Positions 4,172 to 15,776 of a stretch of DNA of 17,695 bases are shown one piece after another (positions within the stretch are counted from its first letter, which is position 1; the number at the start of each line of letters is the position of its first letter). The position numbers were made by a program, and so were the translations under genes. Origin of the DNA: a virus (lineage: Duplodnaviria; Heunggongvirae; Uroviricota; Caudoviricetes); IMG/VR virus record IMGVR_UViG_2778261667_000007, positions 1 through 17,695 of that record. One strand, written 5' to 3'. The notes under the pieces are model-generated. The model was not told the DNA's origin and did no database searches. It saw only the letters and a list, made by a program, of their open reading frames with translations.

Positions 4172-4200
4172 TTGATCTTCCATGTTTTCAGGCTTATATT
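4172..4200 (+). promoter_or_regulatory. Sigma70-type promoter (TTGATC - 17 bp - TATATT) for the c4-like / icd / ant transcript
   Basis: -35 TTGATC 4172-4177, 17-bp spacer, -10 TATATT 4195-4200; predicted TSS near 4207. Confidence 0.5.
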
Positions 4201-4299
4201 CATGCCGTCGTAGCAAATTCTGCGACCGGGTTTGACAGCCTGAATACTTACGCGGACAACCGCACATTTCCGATATTGCGGTATTTTTGTGTCCGTAAA

Positions 4300-4390
4300 A
4301 CCACGTTACGCCCGAATTATGGTGGGGCGTGATGGGGAGGCTTCGGCCTGCTGGTTTCGTAAGTGCCAGTCTGTCAACCCTGTCACGTCC
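4300..4390 (+). ncRNA. c4-like antisense regulatory RNA (immI-type); ends approximate
   Basis: Element b' CGTAAGT (4358-4364) is the exact complement of ACTTACG in the upstream leader (4246-4252) and at the icd-like SD (4429-4435); a' CTGTCAA (4371-4377) is the exact complement of TTGACAG at 4232-4238 and 4401-4407. This a1b1 - b'a' - a2b2 layout matches the P1/P7 immI architecture. Flanking hairpins: acgccc/gggcgt (4308-4330) and a UUCG tetraloop stem (4338-4349). Confidence 0.5.
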
Positions 4391-4446
4391 TGCCACCTGT
4401 TTGACAGCGGGTCGCAGGTTGTTTATCAACTTACGAGGCCGTAACT

Positions 4447-6104: not shown

Positions 6105-6330
6105 GTCATGGGTTAATAAGTAGGCAAACTATGGGGAGTATGTGATTTTGACGGTAGTATCGTCCCCGTGACTACTCCCCGCTCTGTCTGGCGAGGCTTC
6201 CCACTTCTTAGGCAGCAACCGTCTGTATGACGGATTTACGCTGGCCTCCATGGACAGAAACGACGAGTCCCGCCGCCTGTAGTTCCAGTATTCCTTTTTG
6301 CCGGATATTGAGCGCCGCATTGATGTCGCG
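6105..6330 (-). ncRNA. Candidate omega-RNA (reRNA) guide scaffold of TnpB, overlapping the tnpB 3' end and IS right end; extent approximate
   Basis: Established architecture of IS200/IS605 elements (omega-RNA derived from the tnpB 3' end and RE) plus the multi-stem structure seen at 6134-6181. Not confirmed by covariance model. Confidence 0.3.
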
Positions 6331-7383
6331 ATCATGTTCAATACTGCATTCCGGGCATCGCCAGATGCGTTTATGAAGCGGCATTTCCGGCATTTTGTAA
6401 CCACAACAATGGCACGTTTTCGAACTGGCAAACCACTGGTCGAGTTTTACCAGGTGAACGCCTTTTTCCGCTGCCTTGTACTCCAGCTTTGTGATGAAGC
6501 TATGCCAGCCTGCATCACCTATCGCTCTTGCCAGATTGTGGTTTTTCATCATGTTGGCTGTTTTCAGCGTCTCGACAATTACCGCTTGGTTTTCGTCAAC
6601 AATTGCACGAGAGAGCTTGTGTTGAAAATCAGCACGGGCATTAGCCACCCGTTCGTGTAACGCTGCCAGACGGATTCTGGCCTTTTTACGATTCGCGCTT
6701 CCCTTTTGCTTGCGGGATAAGGCTTTTTGTTTGCGTCGCAAATTACGGCTGGCATTGATGAGATGGCGGGGATTTGCAATTTTTACCCCATCAGACTTGA
6801 TGGCAAAGTGCGATAATCCCATATCTATCCCCGTCACGCGGGATATCATGGAAGGTCTGGCTGGCGTTTCCATGCCATCATCGCAGAGTAGCGATGCATA
6901 ATATTTCCCCGTCGCAGAACGAGTGATAGTGATGCTTTTCAGCTTTCCATGAAGTTCACGATGAAGGCGTGCCTCAATCGGGGAAAGTTTGGGGATTTTG
7001 ATGGCATTATCCAGCACCTTAACTCCGACACAGTGATAGCTGGATTGCCAGCCGTTCTTTCTCTTGAAAGTCGGAAACCGGGCTTTCAGCTTCGGATTAA
7101 AAAAGTTGGAAAATGCCACATCAAGATTAATTACCGCCTGTTGCAATGCCATTGAATCAAACTCTTTGAGCCAGGCATACCTGCGGGACTTTTTGGCCAC
7201 AGACAACAACGGTTTCAGATCGTTACGCGGACTTAAATTTACTCCGTGTCTCTGGTAAGCATGTTTTTTGATGTGAAGAGCTTTATTGTACGCAAAGCGT
7301 ACCGCGCCGAACTGGGCATTGAGATACTTTGCCTGTTCCGGTGTTGAATAGATGCGTACTTTTGTTGCTCTTAACATAGTCAC
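6208..7383 (-). CDS. tnpB: IS200/IS605-family TnpB (RNA-guided RuvC-like nuclease), 391 aa
   Basis: RuvC-I (TGIDMGLSHFA), RuvC-II (VIVETLK), zinc finger (CHCCGY ... CPECS) and RuvC-III (HDRDINAALNI) in canonical order. Start is GTG at 7383 or ATG two codons later (7377). Confidence 0.9.
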   Translation of the reverse strand: MTMLRATKVRIYSTPEQAKYLNAQFGAVRFAYNKALHIKKHAYQRHGVNLSPRNDLKPLLSVAKKSRRYAWLKEFDSMALQQAVINLDVAFSNFFNPKLKARFPTFKRKNGWQSSYHCVGVKVLDNAIKIPKLSPIEARLHRELHGKLKSITITRSATGKYYASLLCDDGMETPARPSMISRVTGIDMGLSHFAIKSDGVKIANPRHLINASRNLRRKQKALSRKQKGSANRKKARIRLAALHERVANARADFQHKLSRAIVDENQAVIVETLKTANMMKNHNLARAIGDAGWHSFITKLEYKAAEKGVHLVKLDQWFASSKTCHCCGYKMPEMPLHKRIWRCPECSIEHDRDINAALNIRQKGILELQAAGLVVSVHGGQRKSVIQTVAA

Positions 7384-7571
7384 TGCTCATTGGTACAGGT
7401 TTTTATGCTAACACCGTAATAATATTTTTAAAGCCCTGTGGGCTTTTCCGCCGTTCCTCCCCGCCAGCACTGGGCGAGGGTTCTCGGCGGTTTTCGCTGA
7501 AAATAACATTCTCCATACCCTCTCAACCGTACCGCATAGCGGAATTTTTACGGTTTAGAGGGGGAAATCCT

Positions 7572-10500
7572 TTGGACAAACTACTTCATTCAATCAGTGA
7601 AGCCTCCAGCTTAGGCGAACTGATTGAGATTGTTAGTCGGTTGCATAAATTACGTGCTGTTGCGACCTTTGGTGTCAGGAAAGCCGATGGCGTCAGTATT
7701 CAGAAAACACGCCGGGCAGCAAACAACGCCGCAGTAAATCTTCTTAATTCCCTTCCTCCCGGTTTCGATGGGGCGAAATTAACTGACGAACAACGTCAGA
7801 TTCTTGCCGGGTATACCGGTGAAGGCGGCCTGACAGATGGTGAGGGCAGCCAATACGAATACTACACGCCACAGTTTATGGCTGAAGGTATATGGGATCT
7901 GTTTGCTGACTACGGTATTGATGGCGGGCACGTACTGGAACCATCAGCGGGCACAGGTATTTTCCAGGAGACAAAACGGCAGGGCATGATAATGACCAGC
8001 GCCGAACTGTCTCCGATTTCCGGTCGAATAAACCAGCTTTTGCACCCGGAAGACGATGTGAATATCGGGGCGTTTGAGGCGCTGGCGGCGAAAGACGCAA
8101 TGTATGATCACGCTGTTGGTAACGTACCGTTTGGTGAAGGGCGTTCCGGTGTCGCCGGGCTTGATCCGGCATATGCAAACGAGAAGAACGTTGGCAATTA
8201 CTTTGTGTTGCGCACGATCGACAAGGTTAAGCCTGGTGGACTAATTGTATTGGTGGTGCCGAATGGCATGACCGATGGTACGAAATACAAAAAATTGCGC
8301 GATAAAGTCAGCCGTAAAGCGGAATTTTTGGGCGCACATCGTATGCCTTCTGGTACGTTCAGCGAATCTGGTACAGATACCGTGGTGGACGTATGGGTAT
8401 TGCGTAAACACCCGGAAACCTTCCTGGAGATGATCCCCGACACGGATGATGCAATGCTCAAATCGGCAAACGTCCTTTGGGATACCTTCCTCAAAGGGAA
8501 ATGGTTTACAACCGAAGGGAAGCGATTTGTTTACGGCGACATGGAACGCACCAGCTTCCGCAATACCCTGGTGGTGAAAAAGGACGGTCGTGTATCCAAT
8601 GAGTCGATGAAAACCGCGTTATCACGCCGCTTTGAAAGCCGTATTAATTGGGATTTGCTCGGAGTAACTACCCAGGCATGGCAGGGCGCAAAAGTAGGGG
8701 ATAAGCGTCTTGTAGGCGGTATCTGGCATGAGTTTGATGGCCTGAAATGGGTTAAGGACACGACAACCGAATCCTCCGCGCTTGATGTAAGTCGATATGG
8801 TGTTTCGACGTTTGGCGATCTGCAGATCGCGTTCCAGTCAACAAACGGGATTCTGGCTTTGTCATGGGACCAGATATCGGCGATCGCGTCCGACTATCCA
8901 TCGGTTGTCAGTGATGAAGTGGCAGCAATGATTCGCTTTGCTGGCAAACAGCGAGAAAAAGACAGGGAGCGCGTTATGCGCGGTGCGTTGATAGGGCAGT
9001 TGATCAACAAGGCACTTGATTTGCGTAACCTGGGGGTGAACGTTGATGACAAACTGGCAGATGCATCCCGCCTGGCGGCAGCAGAAGTTGCGAAGTATGG
9101 ACCACCGCACGCGATTAAGCTGAATGGGCTTGCAGAAGCTGGAGCTAAAAACTGGATGACGTTCACTGGCAACGTGAAACAGGATGGTTCCACTTCTGAC
9201 CTTCTGGCAGGGCGACTTGATGTAACGGATGGTGCTGCCGGTATTGACTTTACACGTCCTGAACAAGTGATAGCACATCTTTTCAGTGATGTAGCCCTTA
9301 ATCCTATAACGCTGGGCGACTTTCGTGAGGCGTTTGCTGGTGAACTGCCAGAGGACGACGACGCGGCCCTTGAATACCTGGCGAAATTTGATGATATCGC
9401 TATTGATGGGTATGGCTGCCTGCTGCTGATGGACCGCGCCACCAGCGGCGATATTGCAACCAAAACAGCATTGCTGATGGGCTGGCGTGATGCGTCAACA
9501 GGTGAGCAGAAATCGAACTTTGAGCGTCAGTTGGCGAAAATCGAAGAGAAACGCATTTTCACGCCACTAAATAAAGTCACCGTTAATCTGAATGCCCGCT
9601 GGCTGGATCGCCGTTTGATAAAAGAGTTCCTGGCAGAGCAGGGCTATGACGAGTTTAAGTACACTGAACCTGATCTGAAGGTCGTCGATGGCATTCTGGT
9701 ATCTCCGGACGATTACGAAGGTAAGGACGGTGTATTTACCGGCTATCAGCTACGAACCGTAAACGGCAAAAACGGGAATGAGTTCAAGAAGGCCAACAAT
9801 AAAGACGGCTTCCTGAACCAGTTAGAAAACTACCTGAACGGCGTCAAACCGCGCGGGCAGAACGCTAACGAGTACCTGGATAAGATTGCTCAACTTGAAG
9901 TTAGCTTTAACGACTGGTTACGCACCCACCCGCAGGCTGATCAGATAGCCCGTGACTATAACGACGCATTCAATGGCTTCATTCCGTTCACGCACTCTAA
10001 CGCACCGCTTGGCCTGGAAGGGATTAGTGGAAAGCGCATTCCTCTGACTTATCAGAATGAAGAAGTTCGGCGCTTGTCAGAAGATGGGCGCGGCATCATG
10101 GGATTTGGTACCGGGCTGGGTAAAACCACGACCGCGCTTGCGCTTGAGGCGTATAACTTCGAAACAGGTCGCACTAAACGCACGTGTATTGTTGTTCCGA
10201 AGGCGGTTTATCAGAACTGGTATCACGAGGCACAGAGCTTCTACAGTGCTGATGCCTTCGCCAATATGATGTTTATCGGTCTGGATGAAGTTCGTGATGA
10301 AGACGGCAATATTCTGACCGCGCCGGTGCTTGATGAAAATGGCGAACCCCGCCTGGACAGTAACGGGCAGCCTCTTACCCGCAATGTGGTGAAAGAATCC
10401 GCCAGCGCAGTTATCGTTCAGCGCATGAACATGATCCCGTCGTCAAATTGGCGAACGGTCATCATGACGAAAGAGCAATTCGCGTCTATCCCGCTACGAG

Positions 10501-13500
10501 AAGAAACCATTGAGGAAAACTCACAGCAAGCTGTCTTTAATGCTGTGGAAATGGGGCGTCTTGACCTGGCGTCCGGTAAACACCGTGACGCGCAGAAGAA
10601 GAACAAGATTAAGGATCAGGCAGCAAATACCGGTACAACGAAGAAGCAGAATATCCCGTACTTTGAGGATATGAACTTCGATAGCGTGATTGCCGACGAG
10701 GGGCATAACTACCGAAACTCCTTTAATGCCGGGCGTGAAGCGGGACAACTGGCATATTTGCCTAACCCGGCAGTATCCAAGATGGCCCGCGACATGGCTG
10801 TAAAAGCTGCGTACATGATGAAACGCAACAACGGGCGCGGTGTAGTCATGCTGACGGCAACTCCGCTGGTGAACAGTCCGATTGATGCCTTCAACATGCT
10901 GTCTACTGTCATTCCGCAGGAAGAGTGGATGCGCATGGGCATCATTACGCCTGATGATTTCGTTCGTGTGTTTGGCAAAACAGCAACAGTTCAGGTTCAG
11001 AAAATTTCCGGTGAGGTGGAAGAGAAGCAGGGGCTGGTGGGCTTCCAGAACCTGGACGGTCTGCGTGGTATTTTCCATCGCTGGACTACTCTGAAGAATG
11101 CTGCGGACGTCGGGGCGACGGTTAAAATCCCCGACATCATCGAGAACACCTTGCAGATCCCGATGACAGGGGAGCAGGAGACTGCTTATGAAGAACTTCG
11201 TAAGCGTGCTCAGGAGTTAAGTCGCAATGATGAGCTGACAGTCGATGAAAACGGGCATATCACTAACGACAAACCGGATGATTTCATCTTCTCCATCATC
11301 CGTGACATGGATAAGGTTGCTATAGACCCGGATCTGTATGCCAGTGCGATTACATTCCAGTTCCCCGTTGAGCTTGCAGACCAGGTAAAAGCTATTGCTG
11401 ATGCCTTGCCAAAAGTAGCTGGCGGTAAAGTGGCAGATGATGCAGACGAGGTCGAAGAAGATGGCGCTGGTGGGCTGGTCAGTACGCGTACCAGCAAGGT
11501 AGTGAAGACCACCTTTAGTGAACATCCGGCGCATGTTGAAATACGCGCCAGCATTGAACTGGAAACTGAAATACTGAAGGCCATTGCGGCTGCCGGTATT
11601 GATATGCAGCAGGTATCGCACCCCATCCCGCCGAAGTATGCCGCGCTGATCGAAAATCTTCGTGAAGGTCTGAAGAACGGTAAGCAGATCGTCTTTATTG
11701 ATGAAAAAGCCCAGCACCAGAAGCTGCGCCGTATTATCGCCAGTGCACTGCAAATGCCGGAGCAGGAGATAGGCATTATCAATGCGACGACCGTTAGCCA
11801 GGCTGGTGGCATCAAGCTGAAGAAGGTGAATAAGCCGACTGAACCTACTCTGAATAAAAACGGTGAATACAAAGAAGGGGCATGGGAAACCTACTACAGC
11901 AAACTTGCCCAATATGAGGATTATCTCTCAGCTAAAAATGATGCTGGCCTTGAGGGTATGGAAGGCATTGCCGCCGACTATAACGAAGGTCGCACGCGCA
12001 TCATTATCTGTAACAAGAAGGCTGAAGTAGGTATTAACCTGCATATCGGGACAACCGATATCCACCACCTGACACTACCCTGGACACCAGCCAGTATCGA
12101 CCAACGAAATGGGCGCGGTGCGCGCGTAGGTTCACCGCAAGAGAAGGTCAATGTTCACTACTACTGTGGCAAAGGCACATTTGATGATTTCCGCCTGGAT
12201 ACGCTGAAACGCAAGAAAGACTGGATCAAGATGGTGATGACCTCCGACATGTCAGAGATCGCCAATGGTGATGCGGATGATGCAGATGAACGCGCCATTA
12301 TGCTGGCAGCAAATCCGGAAGAGCGCCGCGCAATCATGGCCCGTCAGGCGCAAGAGCGTGAAGAACGCCTTAAACTGAAAGCGCAGCGCGAGGCCGGTAA
12401 TGCTCTTGATAACTACCTGAAAGCGGCTAATGCTGCCGGGAAAGATATCGGCATGATGGAGACAGAGCTGAAAAGCGCGATGGAGCAGGTAGAGCATTAC
12501 CAGCGCAATCTTGACGACCTGATAAAAGCGGGGACGAACAGGAACGGGCAAAAATATGTTCTAGAACAGTTGCGAGACTACAGAAAACGCGCGCGGGAGC
12601 TGCGGTTTGCTATCACCAGAGCAAAAGACGCTGATACCGTTATGAAACGCTCTCGCGGTGATCTGGAACGAGCCATTAAAGCCGGTATTCTGGAGCTTGA
12701 TGCCGATGTATTACAAAACCCACAGGAATATGTGCGAACTGAGAAAAATATCTTGTTGCACAAGGGCAGCCATTATCGAGCGATCATCGATGAGAATCAC
12801 AACACAACAGCAATTGTTCGTGTGACAGACATTGATGCGGAAAGAGGCGGATGTACTTGCCGCATATCCTGGCTGGATGTGGCTAGTCGTTACTCTCGCT
12901 CCCCCGGGACAGCATTGTATTTACCCTTTAACTTGATAATTGAAGCTGTATCTTTTGAAGAAGGAGTTGCTGAATCGCGTGAAACAGCCGCACGCGGTGT
13001 TCAGAGTCACCAATTATCAACAACACTTACTCGCGCTCAGTTCTATGATGCCATTCGAAATGGAGTCATGAAGGTTACCACCGGCAAGCCTGGTTTGGCA
13101 TGGGGCGGTGGGCAAGCGATTAAATACTGGGCCTATCGCACCGACGATGGTCAGATCGCTCTGTCAACGGCCTATGATGGCGTGATAGGCCAAAAAATCG
13201 GGCGAGCATCGGATATAGCACCTGAACGATGGATATATCCAGATGGCAACGATGAGGCGCTGAAGCGTGAAGTGGCAAAAATACAAGCCAGTGATAACCC
13301 GCTGAATATCGTGGACGGTGAGGGATTCCTCCAGGCATTGTATGGATATGATTACATCCAGGGAATGCAGGCATGGGGAGCGCAAGCCACAATGGATGAT
13401 GTTACCCAGGAATTTGAAAACTGGATGGCAGGGCGTGGTCTTTCTGGTCGTTCGCTTAACAAAGTCACGTCTGAAGATATTCTTAGCCTGTTCCGAAAAC

Positions 13501-14411
13501 CGTCCGGAGAAGGTCTGGAATTATTCTGGAAGACCGTGGTGGCATACCGTTTATTCCGGGGCAGGATGAAAGCCTTTAGCAACACTGATGACATTGAACG
13601 GATGTTTAATCAGGTGAAGGTCGCGAAAATTACGGCGAAAATCGAGAAGACACGAGCTGCGCTGGTGGCCTGGCGCGATGCATTGTTTGAGCAATATAAA
13701 TCACTCAGTGATGCAGATGGATGGGCTGCACTGGAACAGTTGGCGAATAATGGGGTAGATGGAGCGAAACTCGCCATTGTTCAGGCTGATAACCCTCTGG
13801 AATCACCGGCAGCACAATGGATTAAGGTGGGGGCTGTCATCAATGCATTTGATGAGAAACACATTAGTAAAGACGATTTTGCTGATGCTGTTTCTATTAA
13901 TCGCCTGGTAGAAATGGCTACCCGCCGCGCCCGTGAGTTGAAAGACGGTGACTATGTGAATGAGTTGCCGGATGCGCTCAAATCAGCAACGTGGCAAGAC
14001 TATGTATCGCTGAAAAACGGCGGTGCTACCGAATCAGAGATCGCTAAAAGACTTGAGCAGGTTGAAAGCAAAAGAGAAGAGCAGGCGGCAGTGGCTGACG
14101 CCAGAGCTGATGAAGCGGCGAATGATGACTATATCATTGTGGTTAATGATAAGCCGATTCGCGCTAAGGCGCGTGTTCGCGGGCGCTGGTGGAGCGTCAG
14201 CGAGGACGTCGGTGCGGTTTATCTCATTGCCGACCAACCTGGTTCCTCGACAATACGGAACGCCAAAGACGCGATTAAGAAGATTGGCGGGCGTTTCTGG
14301 AATTTTGAAGTAAACCCGGTTGCTGATGTGAACTTTGACCGTCCGGCATGGATGGTATCTACGCGTTACTCGGTAGATGAACTGCGTAAAATAATCGCCG
14401 ATGCGGCCTAA
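7572..14411 (+). CDS. Giant N6-adenine methyltransferase / SF2 helicase fusion (2279 aa), DarB-like antirestriction protein
   Basis: MTase motif I EPSAGTGIF (nt ~7938-7964) and motif IV NVPFGEG (~8121-8141); helicase Walker A GFGTGLGKTT (~10101-10130), DExH VIADEGHNY (~10692-10706), motif III TATP, motif VI QRNGRGARVG (~12103-12132); coiled coil and a ~600-aa C-terminal extension. TTG start at 7572 with SD agaggggg 8 nt upstream. Size and domain order resemble phage P1 DarB (recalled, not searched). Confidence 0.7.
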   Translation: MDKLLHSISEASSLGELIEIVSRLHKLRAVATFGVRKADGVSIQKTRRAANNAAVNLLNSLPPGFDGAKLTDEQRQILAGYTGEGGLTDGEGSQYEYYTPQFMAEGIWDLFADYGIDGGHVLEPSAGTGIFQETKRQGMIMTSAELSPISGRINQLLHPEDDVNIGAFEALAAKDAMYDHAVGNVPFGEGRSGVAGLDPAYANEKNVGNYFVLRTIDKVKPGGLIVLVVPNGMTDGTKYKKLRDKVSRKAEFLGAHRMPSGTFSESGTDTVVDVWVLRKHPETFLEMIPDTDDAMLKSANVLWDTFLKGKWFTTEGKRFVYGDMERTSFRNTLVVKKDGRVSNESMKTALSRRFESRINWDLLGVTTQAWQGAKVGDKRLVGGIWHEFDGLKWVKDTTTESSALDVSRYGVSTFGDLQIAFQSTNGILALSWDQISAIASDYPSVVSDEVAAMIRFAGKQREKDRERVMRGALIGQLINKALDLRNLGVNVDDKLADASRLAAAEVAKYGPPHAIKLNGLAEAGAKNWMTFTGNVKQDGSTSDLLAGRLDVTDGAAGIDFTRPEQVIAHLFSDVALNPITLGDFREAFAGELPEDDDAALEYLAKFDDIAIDGYGCLLLMDRATSGDIATKTALLMGWRDASTGEQKSNFERQLAKIEEKRIFTPLNKVTVNLNARWLDRRLIKEFLAEQGYDEFKYTEPDLKVVDGILVSPDDYEGKDGVFTGYQLRTVNGKNGNEFKKANNKDGFLNQLENYLNGVKPRGQNANEYLDKIAQLEVSFNDWLRTHPQADQIARDYNDAFNGFIPFTHSNAPLGLEGISGKRIPLTYQNEEVRRLSEDGRGIMGFGTGLGKTTTALALEAYNFETGRTKRTCIVVPKAVYQNWYHEAQSFYSADAFANMMFIGLDEVRDEDGNILTAPVLDENGEPRLDSNGQPLTRNVVKESASAVIVQRMNMIPSSNWRTVIMTKEQFASIPLREETIEENSQQAVFNAVEMGRLDLASGKHRDAQKKNKIKDQAANTGTTKKQNIPYFEDMNFDSVIADEGHNYRNSFNAGREAGQLAYLPNPAVSKMARDMAVKAAYMMKRNNGRGVVMLTATPLVNSPIDAFNMLSTVIPQEEWMRMGIITPDDFVRVFGKTATVQVQKISGEVEEKQGLVGFQNLDGLRGIFHRWTTLKNAADVGATVKIPDIIENTLQIPMTGEQETAYEELRKRAQELSRNDELTVDENGHITNDKPDDFIFSIIRDMDKVAIDPDLYASAITFQFPVELADQVKAIADALPKVAGGKVADDADEVEEDGAGGLVSTRTSKVVKTTFSEHPAHVEIRASIELETEILKAIAAAGIDMQQVSHPIPPKYAALIENLREGLKNGKQIVFIDEKAQHQKLRRIIASALQMPEQEIGIINATTVSQAGGIKLKKVNKPTEPTLNKNGEYKEGAWETYYSKLAQYEDYLSAKNDAGLEGMEGIAADYNEGRTRIIICNKKAEVGINLHIGTTDIHHLTLPWTPASIDQRNGRGARVGSPQEKVNVHYYCGKGTFDDFRLDTLKRKKDWIKMVMTSDMSEIANGDADDADERAIMLAANPEERRAIMARQAQEREERLKLKAQREAGNALDNYLKAANAAGKDIGMMETELKSAMEQVEHYQRNLDDLIKAGTNRNGQKYVLEQLRDYRKRARELRFAITRAKDADTVMKRSRGDLERAIKAGILELDADVLQNPQEYVRTEKNILLHKGSHYRAIIDENHNTTAIVRVTDIDAERGGCTCRISWLDVASRYSRSPGTALYLPFNLIIEAVSFEEGVAESRETAARGVQSHQLSTTLTRAQFYDAIRNGVMKVTTGKPGLAWGGGQAIKYWAYRTDDGQIALSTAYDGVIGQKIGRASDIAPERWIYPDGNDEALKREVAKIQASDNPLNIVDGEGFLQALYGYDYIQGMQAWGAQATMDDVTQEFENWMAGRGLSGRSLNKVTSEDILSLFRKPSGEGLELFWKTVVAYRLFRGRMKAFSNTDDIERMFNQVKVAKITAKIEKTRAALVAWRDALFEQYKSLSDADGWAALEQLANNGVDGAKLAIVQADNPLESPAAQWIKVGAVINAFDEKHISKDDFADAVSINRLVEMATRRARELKDGDYVNELPDALKSATWQDYVSLKNGGATESEIAKRLEQVESKREEQAAVADARADEAANDDYIIVVNDKPIRAKARVRGRWWSVSEDVGAVYLIADQPGSSTIRNAKDAIKKIGGRFWNFEVNPVADVNFDRPAWMVSTRYSVDELRKIIADAA

Positions 14412-14447: not shown

Positions 14448-14882
14448 ATGACGACATTAATTGACACTGTAAAACCGACGGAATCCTACCTTGAGGACAT
14501 TTTGCCGCAGGCGCTCAATGGCAGGAGTGAAGAGGCGTTTCTGGATGCATATCTGAATGGCATGGTGGAAAGGCTGAAACGAGATCCACAGCTTTATCAC
14601 CTCTATGGGCCGTGGTGGCCTGCGCTTAAAACGTTATTGCTGGAGCGCGGCGACATATCATTTGGACAAGTTGTAGATAGTGATGTGGCAGAGATCTACA
14701 AAATGAGTCGCCCGGCGCTTACGGTTTTAGCCGGGCATCTGTATTCGAGCGAGCGCCTGGAAAATGACGCGGTATACAATCCCGTTCATGCTCTGGAAGT
14801 TGCACCTTATGCTGATGATACAGAGCCATACGTATACACAAGTTACGATGAGTCCATAGAGAAGTATCGAATCATGGGGTAG
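14448..14882 (+). CDS. Hypothetical acidic protein (144 aa)
   Basis: ATG 14448; 24 acidic versus 12 basic residues. Sits immediately downstream of the DarB-like gene, with a GC-rich hairpin (14423-14440) between an SD (aaggag, 14417-14422) and the ATG. Confidence 0.6.
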   Translation: MTTLIDTVKPTESYLEDILPQALNGRSEEAFLDAYLNGMVERLKRDPQLYHLYGPWWPALKTLLLERGDISFGQVVDSDVAEIYKMSRPALTVLAGHLYSSERLENDAVYNPVHALEVAPYADDTEPYVYTSYDESIEKYRIMG

Positions 14883-14884
14883 CC

Positions 14885-15145
14885 ATGCGAAAGAACCGTA
14901 AGTTTACGCTCGAAGACCTGAAGGAATATTCCACATCGAAGGGGTATGTCCTTGAGTTCCACCGTTACAAGAAGGTTTTTACACTGCGAAAAGCAGAAAA
15001 ACCTGCGGCCTGGAGCTGGGTATACTTCCCTCATACAGAAGACAAACTGGTAGAGCTTGTTGACGATTTAACCTACGAAGGTTGGTTGTTCGCAATCGAC
15101 AGGACAATCAGAGAAATATCCGAACCGGATAAAATAAACCTTTAA
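14885..15145 (+). CDS. Hypothetical protein (86 aa)
   Basis: ATG 14885, 2 nt after the upstream stop, so likely translationally coupled; no recognisable motif. Confidence 0.5.
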   Translation: MRKNRKFTLEDLKEYSTSKGYVLEFHRYKKVFTLRKAEKPAAWSWVYFPHTEDKLVELVDDLTYEGWLFAIDRTIREISEPDKINL

Positions 15146-15281: not shown

Positions 15282-15776
15282 TTGTTGTTATTATTTCGCT
15301 TATTTACTATCAATGGGTGTGTTAGAAAAATAGCGCGAAAAAGAAGGCGTCGCAGTGAATATTCTGAAACATCCCCACATGCCGCAGCTCTCAGTGAACT
15401 GGAGAAAAACCCAGATCTAATCAAAAGGAACCATGAGCATTACGAGCAGGTTCGCGTCCTGGATTGGCTGTATCGCAATATGCGCTATGTGTATGAGCAT
15501 ACACACGCCACTCCCAACGGTGGTCTGCGAGGCATAAGGACGGCAATAAAGATGGTGGCAGAAGGCCAAAAGAAAGGATATCCCGATCTTTCTATAGACC
15601 TTGCTTGCGGGGGATACCACGGAATGCGCATTGAGATGAAACATGGGAGAAATCGCCTGACTCCCGAACAACTCGTCTGGATGACTCGCCTCACTGAAGC
15701 AGGCTACTACTGCTTTGAGGCGCGTAGTGCCGCTGAAGCCATAAAAGCTATCACGGAATATGTTTGTCTTGATTAA
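15282..15776 (+). CDS. VRR-NUC domain nuclease (PD-(D/E)xK); start uncertain, possible frameshift
   Basis: VRR-NUC signature HEHYEQVRVLDWL ... HATPNGG ... KKGYPDLSIDL ... RIEMKHGRNRLTPEQLVWMTRLTEAGYY. No in-frame ATG/GTG upstream of the domain; the only in-frame start is TTG at 15282 without an SD, giving an Arg-rich N-terminal extension. A GTG with good SD (aagaagg) at 15355 is in the +1 frame and stops at 15418-15420. Confidence 0.55.
   Translation: MLLLFRLFTINGCVRKIARKRRRRSEYSETSPHAAALSELEKNPDLIKRNHEHYEQVRVLDWLYRNMRYVYEHTHATPNGGLRGIRTAIKMVAEGQKKGYPDLSIDLACGGYHGMRIEMKHGRNRLTPEQLVWMTRLTEAGYYCFEARSAAEAIKAITEYVCLD

Follow-up and report, generated by a model that had tools for sequence, protein, structure and literature searches.

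Which task does a protein of 2279 amino acids fulfil for a phage-plasmid, and what do its long stretches without a recognisable motif contribute to that task? This question is raised by an open reading frame (ORF) at 7572..14411 on the plus strand of a 17,695-nucleotide stretch of viral DNA (IMG/VR record IMGVR_UViG_2778261667_000007), referred to here as the window. This window belongs to a D6-like phage-plasmid of the P1 family: the 6840-nucleotide interval of the ORF has 94.6% nucleotide identity to Escherichia phage D6, and the whole window is ~93% identical to many non-mobilizable plasmids of ~90 kb from E. coli, Salmonella and Shigella. We propose, with a probability of roughly 0.85, that the ORF encodes an orthologue of DarB with a DarB-like role. 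No other component of P1's classic defence-against-restriction (Dar) system is as large as DarB. The assignment itself is already known, since gp15, the D6 counterpart, carries a darB-like annotation. The window thus brings no new kind of protein, but its dissection offers experimental handles.

Identity of the darB reading frame

The initial annotation described a frame of 2279 residues that opens with TTG, and this description holds. The frame is intact and preceded by a ribosome-binding site, and the TTG at 7572 is the earliest canonical start in the darB frame, aligns with Met1 of P1 DarB and is common to D6 and all four other intact D6-type alleles examined. The start region and the first two thirds of the protein comprise the following features:

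7558..7574, plus strand: ribosome-binding site GAGGGGG (7558-7564), 7-nucleotide spacer and TTG start codon (7572-7574), read from the sequence
7572..7841, plus strand: residues 1-90, LPD36-type helical N-terminal domain (motif conservation, helices in the AlphaFold2 model, LPD36 definition of PMC5512222)
7842..8450, plus strand: residues 91-293, gamma-class N6-adenine DNA methyltransferase, EcoKI HsdM/TaqI-like (Pfam, motifs, Foldseek)
8451..10019, plus strand: residues 294-816, mixed alpha/beta region to which the searches gave no function, separating the methyltransferase from the helicase
10020..12191, plus strand: residues 817-1540, SNF2-type ATPase/translocase of superfamily 2 (SF2) (Pfam, motifs, PDB profile)
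11262-11591, plus strand: residues 1231-1340, variable acidic insert between the helicase lobes

The DarB-like assignment, also part of the initial annotation, is borne out by homology, architecture and synteny. The window protein shares 96% amino-acid identity with D6 gp15 over the full length and 43% identity with P1 DarB over ~2000 (2002) collinear columns starting at residue 1. Its tail remains collinear with that of P1 DarB at 28% identity, the last ~130 residues still giving a match (E=0.002). PHROG 11801 and 10089 (‘DarB-like antirestriction’) are both matched, the domain order is that expected of DarB (LPD36, gamma-class N6-adenine methyltransferase, SNF2 ATPase), and ulx lies directly downstream. 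In line with this, a survey from 2025 reported the Dar system for every P1 and D6 phage-plasmid (bioRxiv 10.1101/2025.09.12.675607). Purifying selection acts along the entire protein: the ratio of non-synonymous to synonymous substitution rates (dN/dS) versus D6 is 0.118 overall and at most 0.2 in each region.

The D6-like Shigella dysenteriae plasmid L007 (CP026821.1) carries a disrupted darB homologue in which the longest open frame spans 934 amino acids, and darB thus appears to be sometimes lost or decaying in the population.

Enzymatic modules and proposed mode of action

The LPD36-type domain that precedes the methyltransferase was left out of the earlier description. It carries the motif Y-T-G-E-G-G at residues 81-86 (family form Y-[ST]-G-x-G-G), which is kept in homologues. 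Its first 30 residues are the counterpart of the P1 capsid-targeting sequence, and residues 2-9 and 14-25 are predicted to form helices in the AlphaFold2 model.

The catalytic motifs of the methyltransferase were checked by alignment with 21 full-length homologues of 2190-2364 amino acids, which were collected by an exhaustive HMMER search and are 30-60% identical across the N-terminal two thirds. An E-Y-Y-T-P cap (residues 96-100) is followed by motif I, LEPSAGTGIF (residues 122-131; nucleotides 7935-7964), which is kept in the 21 homologues and is placed N-terminal to motif IV, as the gamma class requires. Motif IV reads N-V-P-F (residues 184-187; nucleotides 8121-8132) and follows G183, giving the family form G-N-[V/P]-P-F (183-187). 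Valine replaces the first proline in most members, the canonical NPPF/Y being present in five of the 21 homologues, and the asparagine, the second proline and the aromatic residue are invariant or nearly so among the 22 sequences. The initial annotation had named such an alignment as the test of this domain, and the motifs turn out to be conserved across the homologues rather than degenerate. The Pfam match to N6_Mtase barely exceeds the cut-off. The AlphaFold2 model of residues 1-820 (mean predicted local distance difference test score, pLDDT, 82.5) gives 304 PDB matches at E<=1e-3 in Foldseek, the best being 7eew, 3ufb, 2ar0 (HsdM), 2adm (TaqI), 7qw8 (M.BseCI) and CamA; EcoKI and Vibrio HsdM, BsaXI and the type ISP enzyme LlaBIII are also among the matched proteins. 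A family profile searched against PDB sequences likewise matched EcoKI M.

These Foldseek alignments span only ~200-350 columns of the 820-residue model. Residues 294-816 gave no match to Pfam, to PDB sequences with the family profile, or to a known fold, and are 24-54% identical to distant homologues, i.e., moderately conserved. The methyltransferase-helicase fusion that had been proposed is thus correct in that both domains are present, but the two are not joined directly, as this region of 520 amino acids lies between them.

A complete SF2 helicase core was also claimed, and it can now be specified as SNF2-type. Pfam matches in this region are SNF2-rel_dom (E=5.7e-12), ResIII and Helicase_C, and besides EcoKI M the family profile matched only SNF2-family proteins among PDB sequences (SMARCAD1, INO80, BRG1 and SsoRad54). 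Motifs I, Ia, II, III, IV, V and VI are all present and conserved in the 21 homologues. Lobe 1 (817-1230) contains motif I, GTGLGKT (846-852; nucleotides 10107-10127), motif II, DEGH (1042-1045; nucleotides 10695-10706), and motif III, TAT (1095-1097), and lobe 2 (1341-1540) contains motif VI, QRNGRGAR (1511-1518; nucleotides 12102-12125). Nowhere in the protein is dN/dS higher than in the insert between the lobes (0.20), where identity in distant homologues is only 20-55%; the insert contains the acidic low-complexity stretch ADDADEVEEDGAGG.

What is known of the function of DarB comes from P1. There, DarB is a head protein present at ~40 copies per virion that inhibits EcoK and EcoB (PMC9024508), so that the initial statement that P1 DarB is packaged into virions and protects against these enzymes agrees with the literature (PMC9024508; PMC12810830). 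Its N-terminal 30 residues are sufficient to load a TetR-mCherry reporter into the capsid (PMC9024508). It is loaded last among the Dar components and needs Ulx, DdrB, DarA and Hdf (PMC9024508; PMC12810830; PMC12707154), and the Dar proteins are ejected together with the DNA and act in cis (PMC12810830; PMC12707154).

By analogy, the window protein most likely works as P1 DarB does. It would be made late, enter the procapsid via its N-terminal ~30 residues with the aid of Ulx, DdrB, DarA and Hdf, reside in the head at tens of copies and be ejected along with the DNA, where it would act in cis to prevent cleavage by restriction enzymes of the EcoKI/EcoBI type (type IA). The SNF2 motor may then carry DarB along the entering duplex, while the HsdM/TaqI-like domain would engage or methylate adenines, such that translocation-dependent cleavage by type I complexes is kept from starting or from being completed. 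To this last part, a motor-driven methyltransferase on the entering duplex as in the model of Iyer et al., we give slightly less than an even chance.

After delivery by the same route, the same modules would also allow DarB to act independently of methylation, as a DNA-bound roadblock or stripping motor that runs into type I complexes or pushes them aside, or by coating the DNA with many copies; the methyltransferase-like domain would then be a DNA- or base-binding module only. The cis-only action of Dar on packaged DNA has prompted an occlusion hypothesis (PMC12707154), and SNF2 enzymes, as translocases on duplex DNA, remodel complexes of protein and DNA (PMC5512222). Likewise, the ~40 copies per virion (PMC9024508), the failure to detect a target-recognition domain and the departure of motif IV from NPPF/Y in most family members fit such a mechanism. 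However, motif I and N-x-P-F are strictly conserved at 30-60% identity, favouring selection on catalysis over binding alone, and ~40 molecules are too few to coat ~90 kb of DNA. We consider this mode of action rather unlikely, albeit worth retaining beside the motor-driven methyltransferase.

The combination of a methyltransferase and an SF2 helicase in one polypeptide is also found in type ISP enzymes, and LlaBIII is among the fold matches. The protein could hence be a plasmid-borne defence enzyme (type ISP, type I-like, DISARM-like or BREX-like) instead of an anti-restriction protein, and there are weak NCBIfam matches to DISARM DrmD, DpdE and a dnd-linked restriction enzyme. Yet, these matches score 28-43 bits against curated cut-offs of 500-1100 and concern the generic helicase C-lobe only. 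E.g., DISARM DrmD was rejected at 43.3 bits versus a cut-off of 610 and at 27.8 versus 950, with only the helicase C-lobe aligned. In addition, no nuclease domain (Mrr/PD-(D/E)xK) was found by Pfam, NCBIfam or PDB profile, the domain order is reversed relative to type ISP, and the protein is collinear with P1 DarB over its full length and syntenic with ulx. A defence enzyme is therefore very improbable.

Several points weigh against a DarB that works in the D6-like element as it does in P1. All experimental evidence on DarB stems from P1, and even for P1 the biochemical mechanism is stated as undefined, almost forty years after the discovery of DarB (PMC11109961). The window protein does not conserve residues 6-10 of P1 DarB, to which a part in capsid targeting has been ascribed, and is identical to P1 at only 8 of the 30 N-terminal residues. 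Motif IV deviates from the canonical N-P-P-F/Y, so that methyl transfer is presumed, and neither Pfam nor the PDB profile nor Foldseek revealed a target-recognition domain in residues 294-816; within the window there is also no hsdS-like gene near darB. Moreover, ddrB is reported absent from most D6-like elements (bioRxiv 10.1101/2025.09.12.675607), and their loading pathway may thus differ from that of P1. Finally, expression can only be presumed: an insertion divides the sole sigma-70-like promoter candidate that lies upstream of darB, and the P1-type late promoter (AAGTGAYT-N4-TANNNT, a pattern built from P1's annotated LPlyz and LPpro) is not found in the window, where its single boxes are no commoner than chance. 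The insertion is the following element:

6168..7496, minus strand: TnpB-only element of the IS200/IS605 type, 1329 bp, with tnpB at 6208-7383 (Pfam OrfB_IS605, Cas12f1-like_TNB, HTH_OrfB_IS605)

It has no tnpA, lies 75 bp 5' of the darB start codon and is absent from D6, and it recurs as an identical insertion in several plasmids from E. coli and E. marmotae. In D6 the promoter candidate reads TTGACG-16-GAAAAT, and the element is inserted inside the 16-nucleotide spacer, so that the boxes are now found at 6148-6153 (TTGACG) and 7499-7504 (GAAAAT). The promoter statements come from consensus matching, with the D6 candidate matching 9 of 12 positions. The insertion, though not part of darB, likely affects darB transcription. 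At its most severe, darB would be intact but poorly expressed or transcriptionally uncoupled, i.e., a recently silenced passenger. The position of the insertion within the only sigma-70-like candidate, the lack of a promoter-like site between the insertion and the darB start, and the disrupted darB in S. dysenteriae, which means that loss does occur, speak for this scenario. It is countered by an ORF that is wholly intact and under purifying selection, by the intact darB of several independent plasmids from E. coli and E. marmotae in which this very insertion is found, by the modest 9/12 match of the candidate and by possible read-through of late transcription from upstream. Silencing is doubtful, and a functional DarB orthologue remains the preferred interpretation.

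The C-terminal third and its hypervariable segment

The initial annotation noted a coiled coil after the helicase and a long C-terminal region without recognisable motif, and suggested that this third might carry packaging or targeting determinants or an additional activity. Both descriptive statements stand after domain searches and structure prediction, and the tail (residues 1541-2279) resolves into the following parts:

12315..12680, plus strand: residues 1582-1703, three long helices forming a predicted coiled-coil-like bundle (AlphaFold2 model)
12612..13151, plus strand: residues 1681-1860, hypervariable mosaic segment (six-allele diversity, synonymous divergence, identity bands among plasmids)
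12729-12947, plus strand: residues 1720-1792, predicted first small beta module, weakly Tudor/SH3-like (AlphaFold2 model)
residues 1834-1866, plus strand: predicted second beta module, preceded by short helices (AlphaFold2 model)
13254..14114, plus strand: residues 1895-2181, predicted helical region, 6-24% identical to distant homologues (AlphaFold2 model)
14130..14411, plus strand: residues 2187-2278, family-specific terminal alpha/beta domain, followed by the stop codon (alignments, AlphaFold2 model)

No match to the tail was obtained in Pfam or among PDB sequences, whether with the single sequence or the full family profile, and no significant fold match was found; Pfam searches on five sub-segments of the protein returned the methyltransferase only. 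The helical region 1895-2181 is likewise without a Pfam, PDB or fold match, and the terminal domain without a PDB or Pfam match, profile search included. A word-indexed homologue search retrieved near-identical fragments alone with the tail and a single fragment with a profile of the terminal domain. By exhaustive HMMER search, the tail homologues are only DarB-sized proteins (2190-2364 amino acids) or fragments, on contigs of ~57-99 kb typical of P1-like elements, and most match just the first ~200 residues of the tail. Four candidates for standalone tail domains (P0047, P0061, P0034 and P0015) were rejected, as their short matches look like fragments. There is thus no other architecture that could lend the tail a function.

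The AlphaFold2 model of the tail, built from 20 sequences (the structure models overall use shallow alignments of 20-22 sequences), reaches a pLDDT of 84.5 at a predicted template modelling (pTM) score of 0.50, such that the relative orientation of the domains is uncertain. With this model, Foldseek gave recurrent matches to the Tudor domains of SMN, PHF1 and SPF30 and to the KOW domain of NusG (target-normalised TM score 0.6-0.8, probability ~1); at E=0.1-1, and with none at E<=1e-3, these are not statistically significant, and their placement on the module at 1720-1792 is tentative.

Sequence conservation decreases towards the C-terminus while the total length is nearly constant: identity to distant homologues amounts to 40-76% for the enzymatic modules, to 22-39% for residues 1541-1740 and to 6-27% for residues 1741-2279. 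Within the terminal domain, D2221, K2236 and W2260 are almost invariant, and the family motif D-x-x-G-K-x-G-x-L ... G-x-W-W-x-I is kept only in part in the window protein. This domain is weakly similar to the C-terminus of P1 DarB (E=0.002) and differs from that of D6 by one amino acid. Since the tail is under purifying selection (dN/dS versus D6 0.07-0.19), it is functional.

Diversity along the protein was profiled with a sliding window over six full-length alleles and complemented by BLAST identity bands. Amino-acid diversity peaks at 25% in residues 1741-1800, with 13% and 9% in the neighbouring windows of 60 residues, compared to 0-4% over most of the remaining protein. The core of the variable part falls on the first beta-barrel module. 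The synonymous divergence (dS) from D6 is 0.48-0.71 for residues 1541-1900 versus 0.05-0.14 elsewhere. Positive selection on the segment was considered and rejected, dN/dS being 0.19 at a very high dS. Among ~117 D6-like plasmids, 105 have the first 1080 nucleotides of darB 95-99% identical to the window. For the 1080 nucleotides encoding residues 1541-1900, identity is 80-90% in 86 of these plasmids and 100% in one only, from E. marmotae (NZ_CP099353.1). The six alleles fall into two classes at the variable segment, i.e., the window with plasmids L003 and L004 versus D6 with L005 and L006, and these classes assort independently of the N-terminal variants. The sequence pattern points to old allelic lineages exchanged by recombination, and thus to an imported older allele rather than to faster drift. 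Co-variation of the segment with Ulx was looked for and is not present in the six alleles.

A second diversity peak of 11% lies at residues 1-60 (7572-7751) and spans the equivalent of the P1 capsid-targeting signal. Two N-terminal variants occur among D6-type alleles, MDKLLHSISEAS... and MDKIIDSISQAT....

From the models, the C-terminal third looks like a non-enzymatic part, composed of a helical scaffold, a small beta-barrel shuffled by recombination and a conserved terminal domain. An additional activity is not supported, no catalytic fold or motif having been found. A role as packaging determinant is not favoured either, by analogy with P1: because the N-terminal 30 residues of P1 DarB are sufficient (PMC9024508), a C-terminal determinant would not be needed. 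Rather than in capsid targeting, the modelled beta-barrel and terminal domain most likely serve in contacts with proteins or with DNA, be it inside the Dar complex of the head or with a host target. A more specific idea is that the beta-barrel (~1720-1795) is an exchangeable specificity cassette in a protein otherwise 96-100% conserved, and that its alleles would tune the choice of the host restriction complex, defence complex or host factor engaged by DarB. Several alleles would then be kept in the phage-plasmid population by recombination, like tail-fibre or anti-defence cassettes. We regard this as speculative and unlikely at present. If true, DarB would have its targeting end in the C-terminal third, and nature would already supply specificity mutants in the form of these alleles.

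The accessible literature has no description of the sharply delimited hypervariable segment around the small beta-barrel, of the conserved terminal domain or of residues 294-816 as a further region without assignment, which makes them modest additions to what is known. The experimental handles are thus two large regions without assignment (294-816 and 1541-2279), of which the tail is structured, selected and non-enzymatic in appearance, and within the tail a natural hypervariable beta-barrel next to a conserved terminal domain. P1-type virions serve as delivery vehicles for DNA and protein, so it is of practical use to learn which of its parts DarB can do without or which give it specificity.

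Genomic setting and comparison with known systems

The gene order of the window is that of D6, with portal, head protease, repL, icd, anti-repressor, a CHAP-domain hydrolase (minus strand) and darB, continuing 3' of darB with ulx, a small ORF, pmgM (VRR-NUC) and pmgS. The genes flanking darB are of P1 type, namely prt, pro, repL, icd, pmgM and pmgS. In D6, which is syntenic with the window, ddrA- and ddrB-like genes sit just beyond the window limits; darA and hdf are located outside the window as well. The features outside darB are:

4194-4246, plus strand: C4 antisense RNA, P1-type (Rfam RF01695, 69.6 bits)
4315-4400, plus strand: a1/b1 target element of the C4 RNA (Rfam RF03163, 55.9 bits)
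14448..14882, plus strand: ulx homologue, 47% identity to Ulx, the partner of DarB in P1, the darB-ulx order being shared with P1 and D6
14885-15145, plus strand: ORF of 86 amino acids after ulx, homologue of D6 orf13, no Pfam match
15282-15776, plus strand: pmgM homologue with a VRR-NUC nuclease domain (Pfam E=9.6e-6)
4724, 4934, 9439 (minus strand), 11033, 11466, 11802, 13661, 14185, 16605 and 17681: Chi sites, nine of ten on the plus strand

The C4 RNA and its target both lie upstream of icd and the anti-repressor gene, as in P1, and an immI-type immunity region is thus conserved in the element. The 86-residue ORF is strongly variable among similar plasmids, L003 differing at about one quarter of the positions, with Ulx being far less variable. 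In several plasmid annotations (L003-L006) pmgM is shortened or split into coding sequences of 225-492 nucleotides. Antisense ORFs within darB, of up to 231 amino acids, have no Pfam matches and were dismissed as chance ORFs.

Chi (GCTGGTGG) is strongly over-represented in the window, with 10 sites against 0.43 expected, a number reached in none of 200 shuffles. The darB gene itself contains six of the sites, and five of these six are on the plus strand. This raises the question whether part of the antirestriction effect of darB stems from its DNA, through Chi-driven, RecBCD/RecA-dependent and ClpXP-mediated alleviation of EcoKI restriction. Indeed, Chi-bearing P1 darB DNA on plasmids alleviates EcoKI restriction despite a premature stop codon (PMC11109961). 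This effect is, however, known from multicopy plasmids that also bear an EcoKI site and not from an infecting phage, whose genetics require a virion protein in cis. Moreover, the enrichment of Chi reaches beyond darB across the window and has been reported genome-wide for P1 (PMC11109961). A contribution of the DNA is accordingly improbable, and we attribute the antirestriction role to the DarB protein.

Among known systems, D6 gp15 (ASR76325.1, ‘defense against restriction, similar to P1 gene darB’) is the closest. The two proteins share 96% identity, the TTG start, nearly the same length (2278 versus 2279 amino acids) and the same neighbours, a peptidoglycan hydrolase upstream and ulx downstream. 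They differ in residues 1541-1900, which are only 86% identical with a dS 4-10 times higher and thus represent a different variable-segment allele, and in the intergenic region upstream of darB, where D6 is without the TnpB element carried by the window.

Both type I and type ISP systems share the catalytic fold of the methyltransferase with the window protein, as exemplified by HsdM (EcoKI M) and LlaBIII/LlaGI, and type ISP enzymes also combine a helicase-like motor and a methyltransferase on one polypeptide. In contrast, the window protein has no nuclease, recognisable target-recognition domain or HsdS partner, its domains are arranged in the reverse order and its motor belongs to the SNF2 clade.

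An architectural relationship exists with the polyvalent proteins, in which DarB has been described as a dyad of an LPD36 plus EcoKI/TaqI-like methyltransferase and a SWI2/SNF2 ATPase (Iyer et al., 2017; PMC5512222). The window protein shares LPD36 with its G-x-G-[GAS] motif, the T-P cap and the EcoKI/TaqI-like gamma-class methyltransferase, followed by an SNF2-clade ATPase with helical inserts. That description assigns neither the 294-816 region nor the C-terminal third. Other polyvalent proteins, such as the podophage giants of at least 3700 amino acids, join the dyad to further effector domains that the window protein does not have.

With P1 DarB (YP_006479.1, 2255 amino acids) the comparison extends to the whole molecule. 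P1 darB starts with ATG instead of TTG and is divergent from prt and pro, whereas in the window both genes are located 5 kb upstream on the same strand. The tail is ~28% identical and patchy. Nevertheless, the architecture is collinear from residue 1 to the C-terminus, with 43% identity across LPD36, methyltransferase, middle region and helicase, and the N-V-P-F form of motif IV and the downstream ulx are shared as well.

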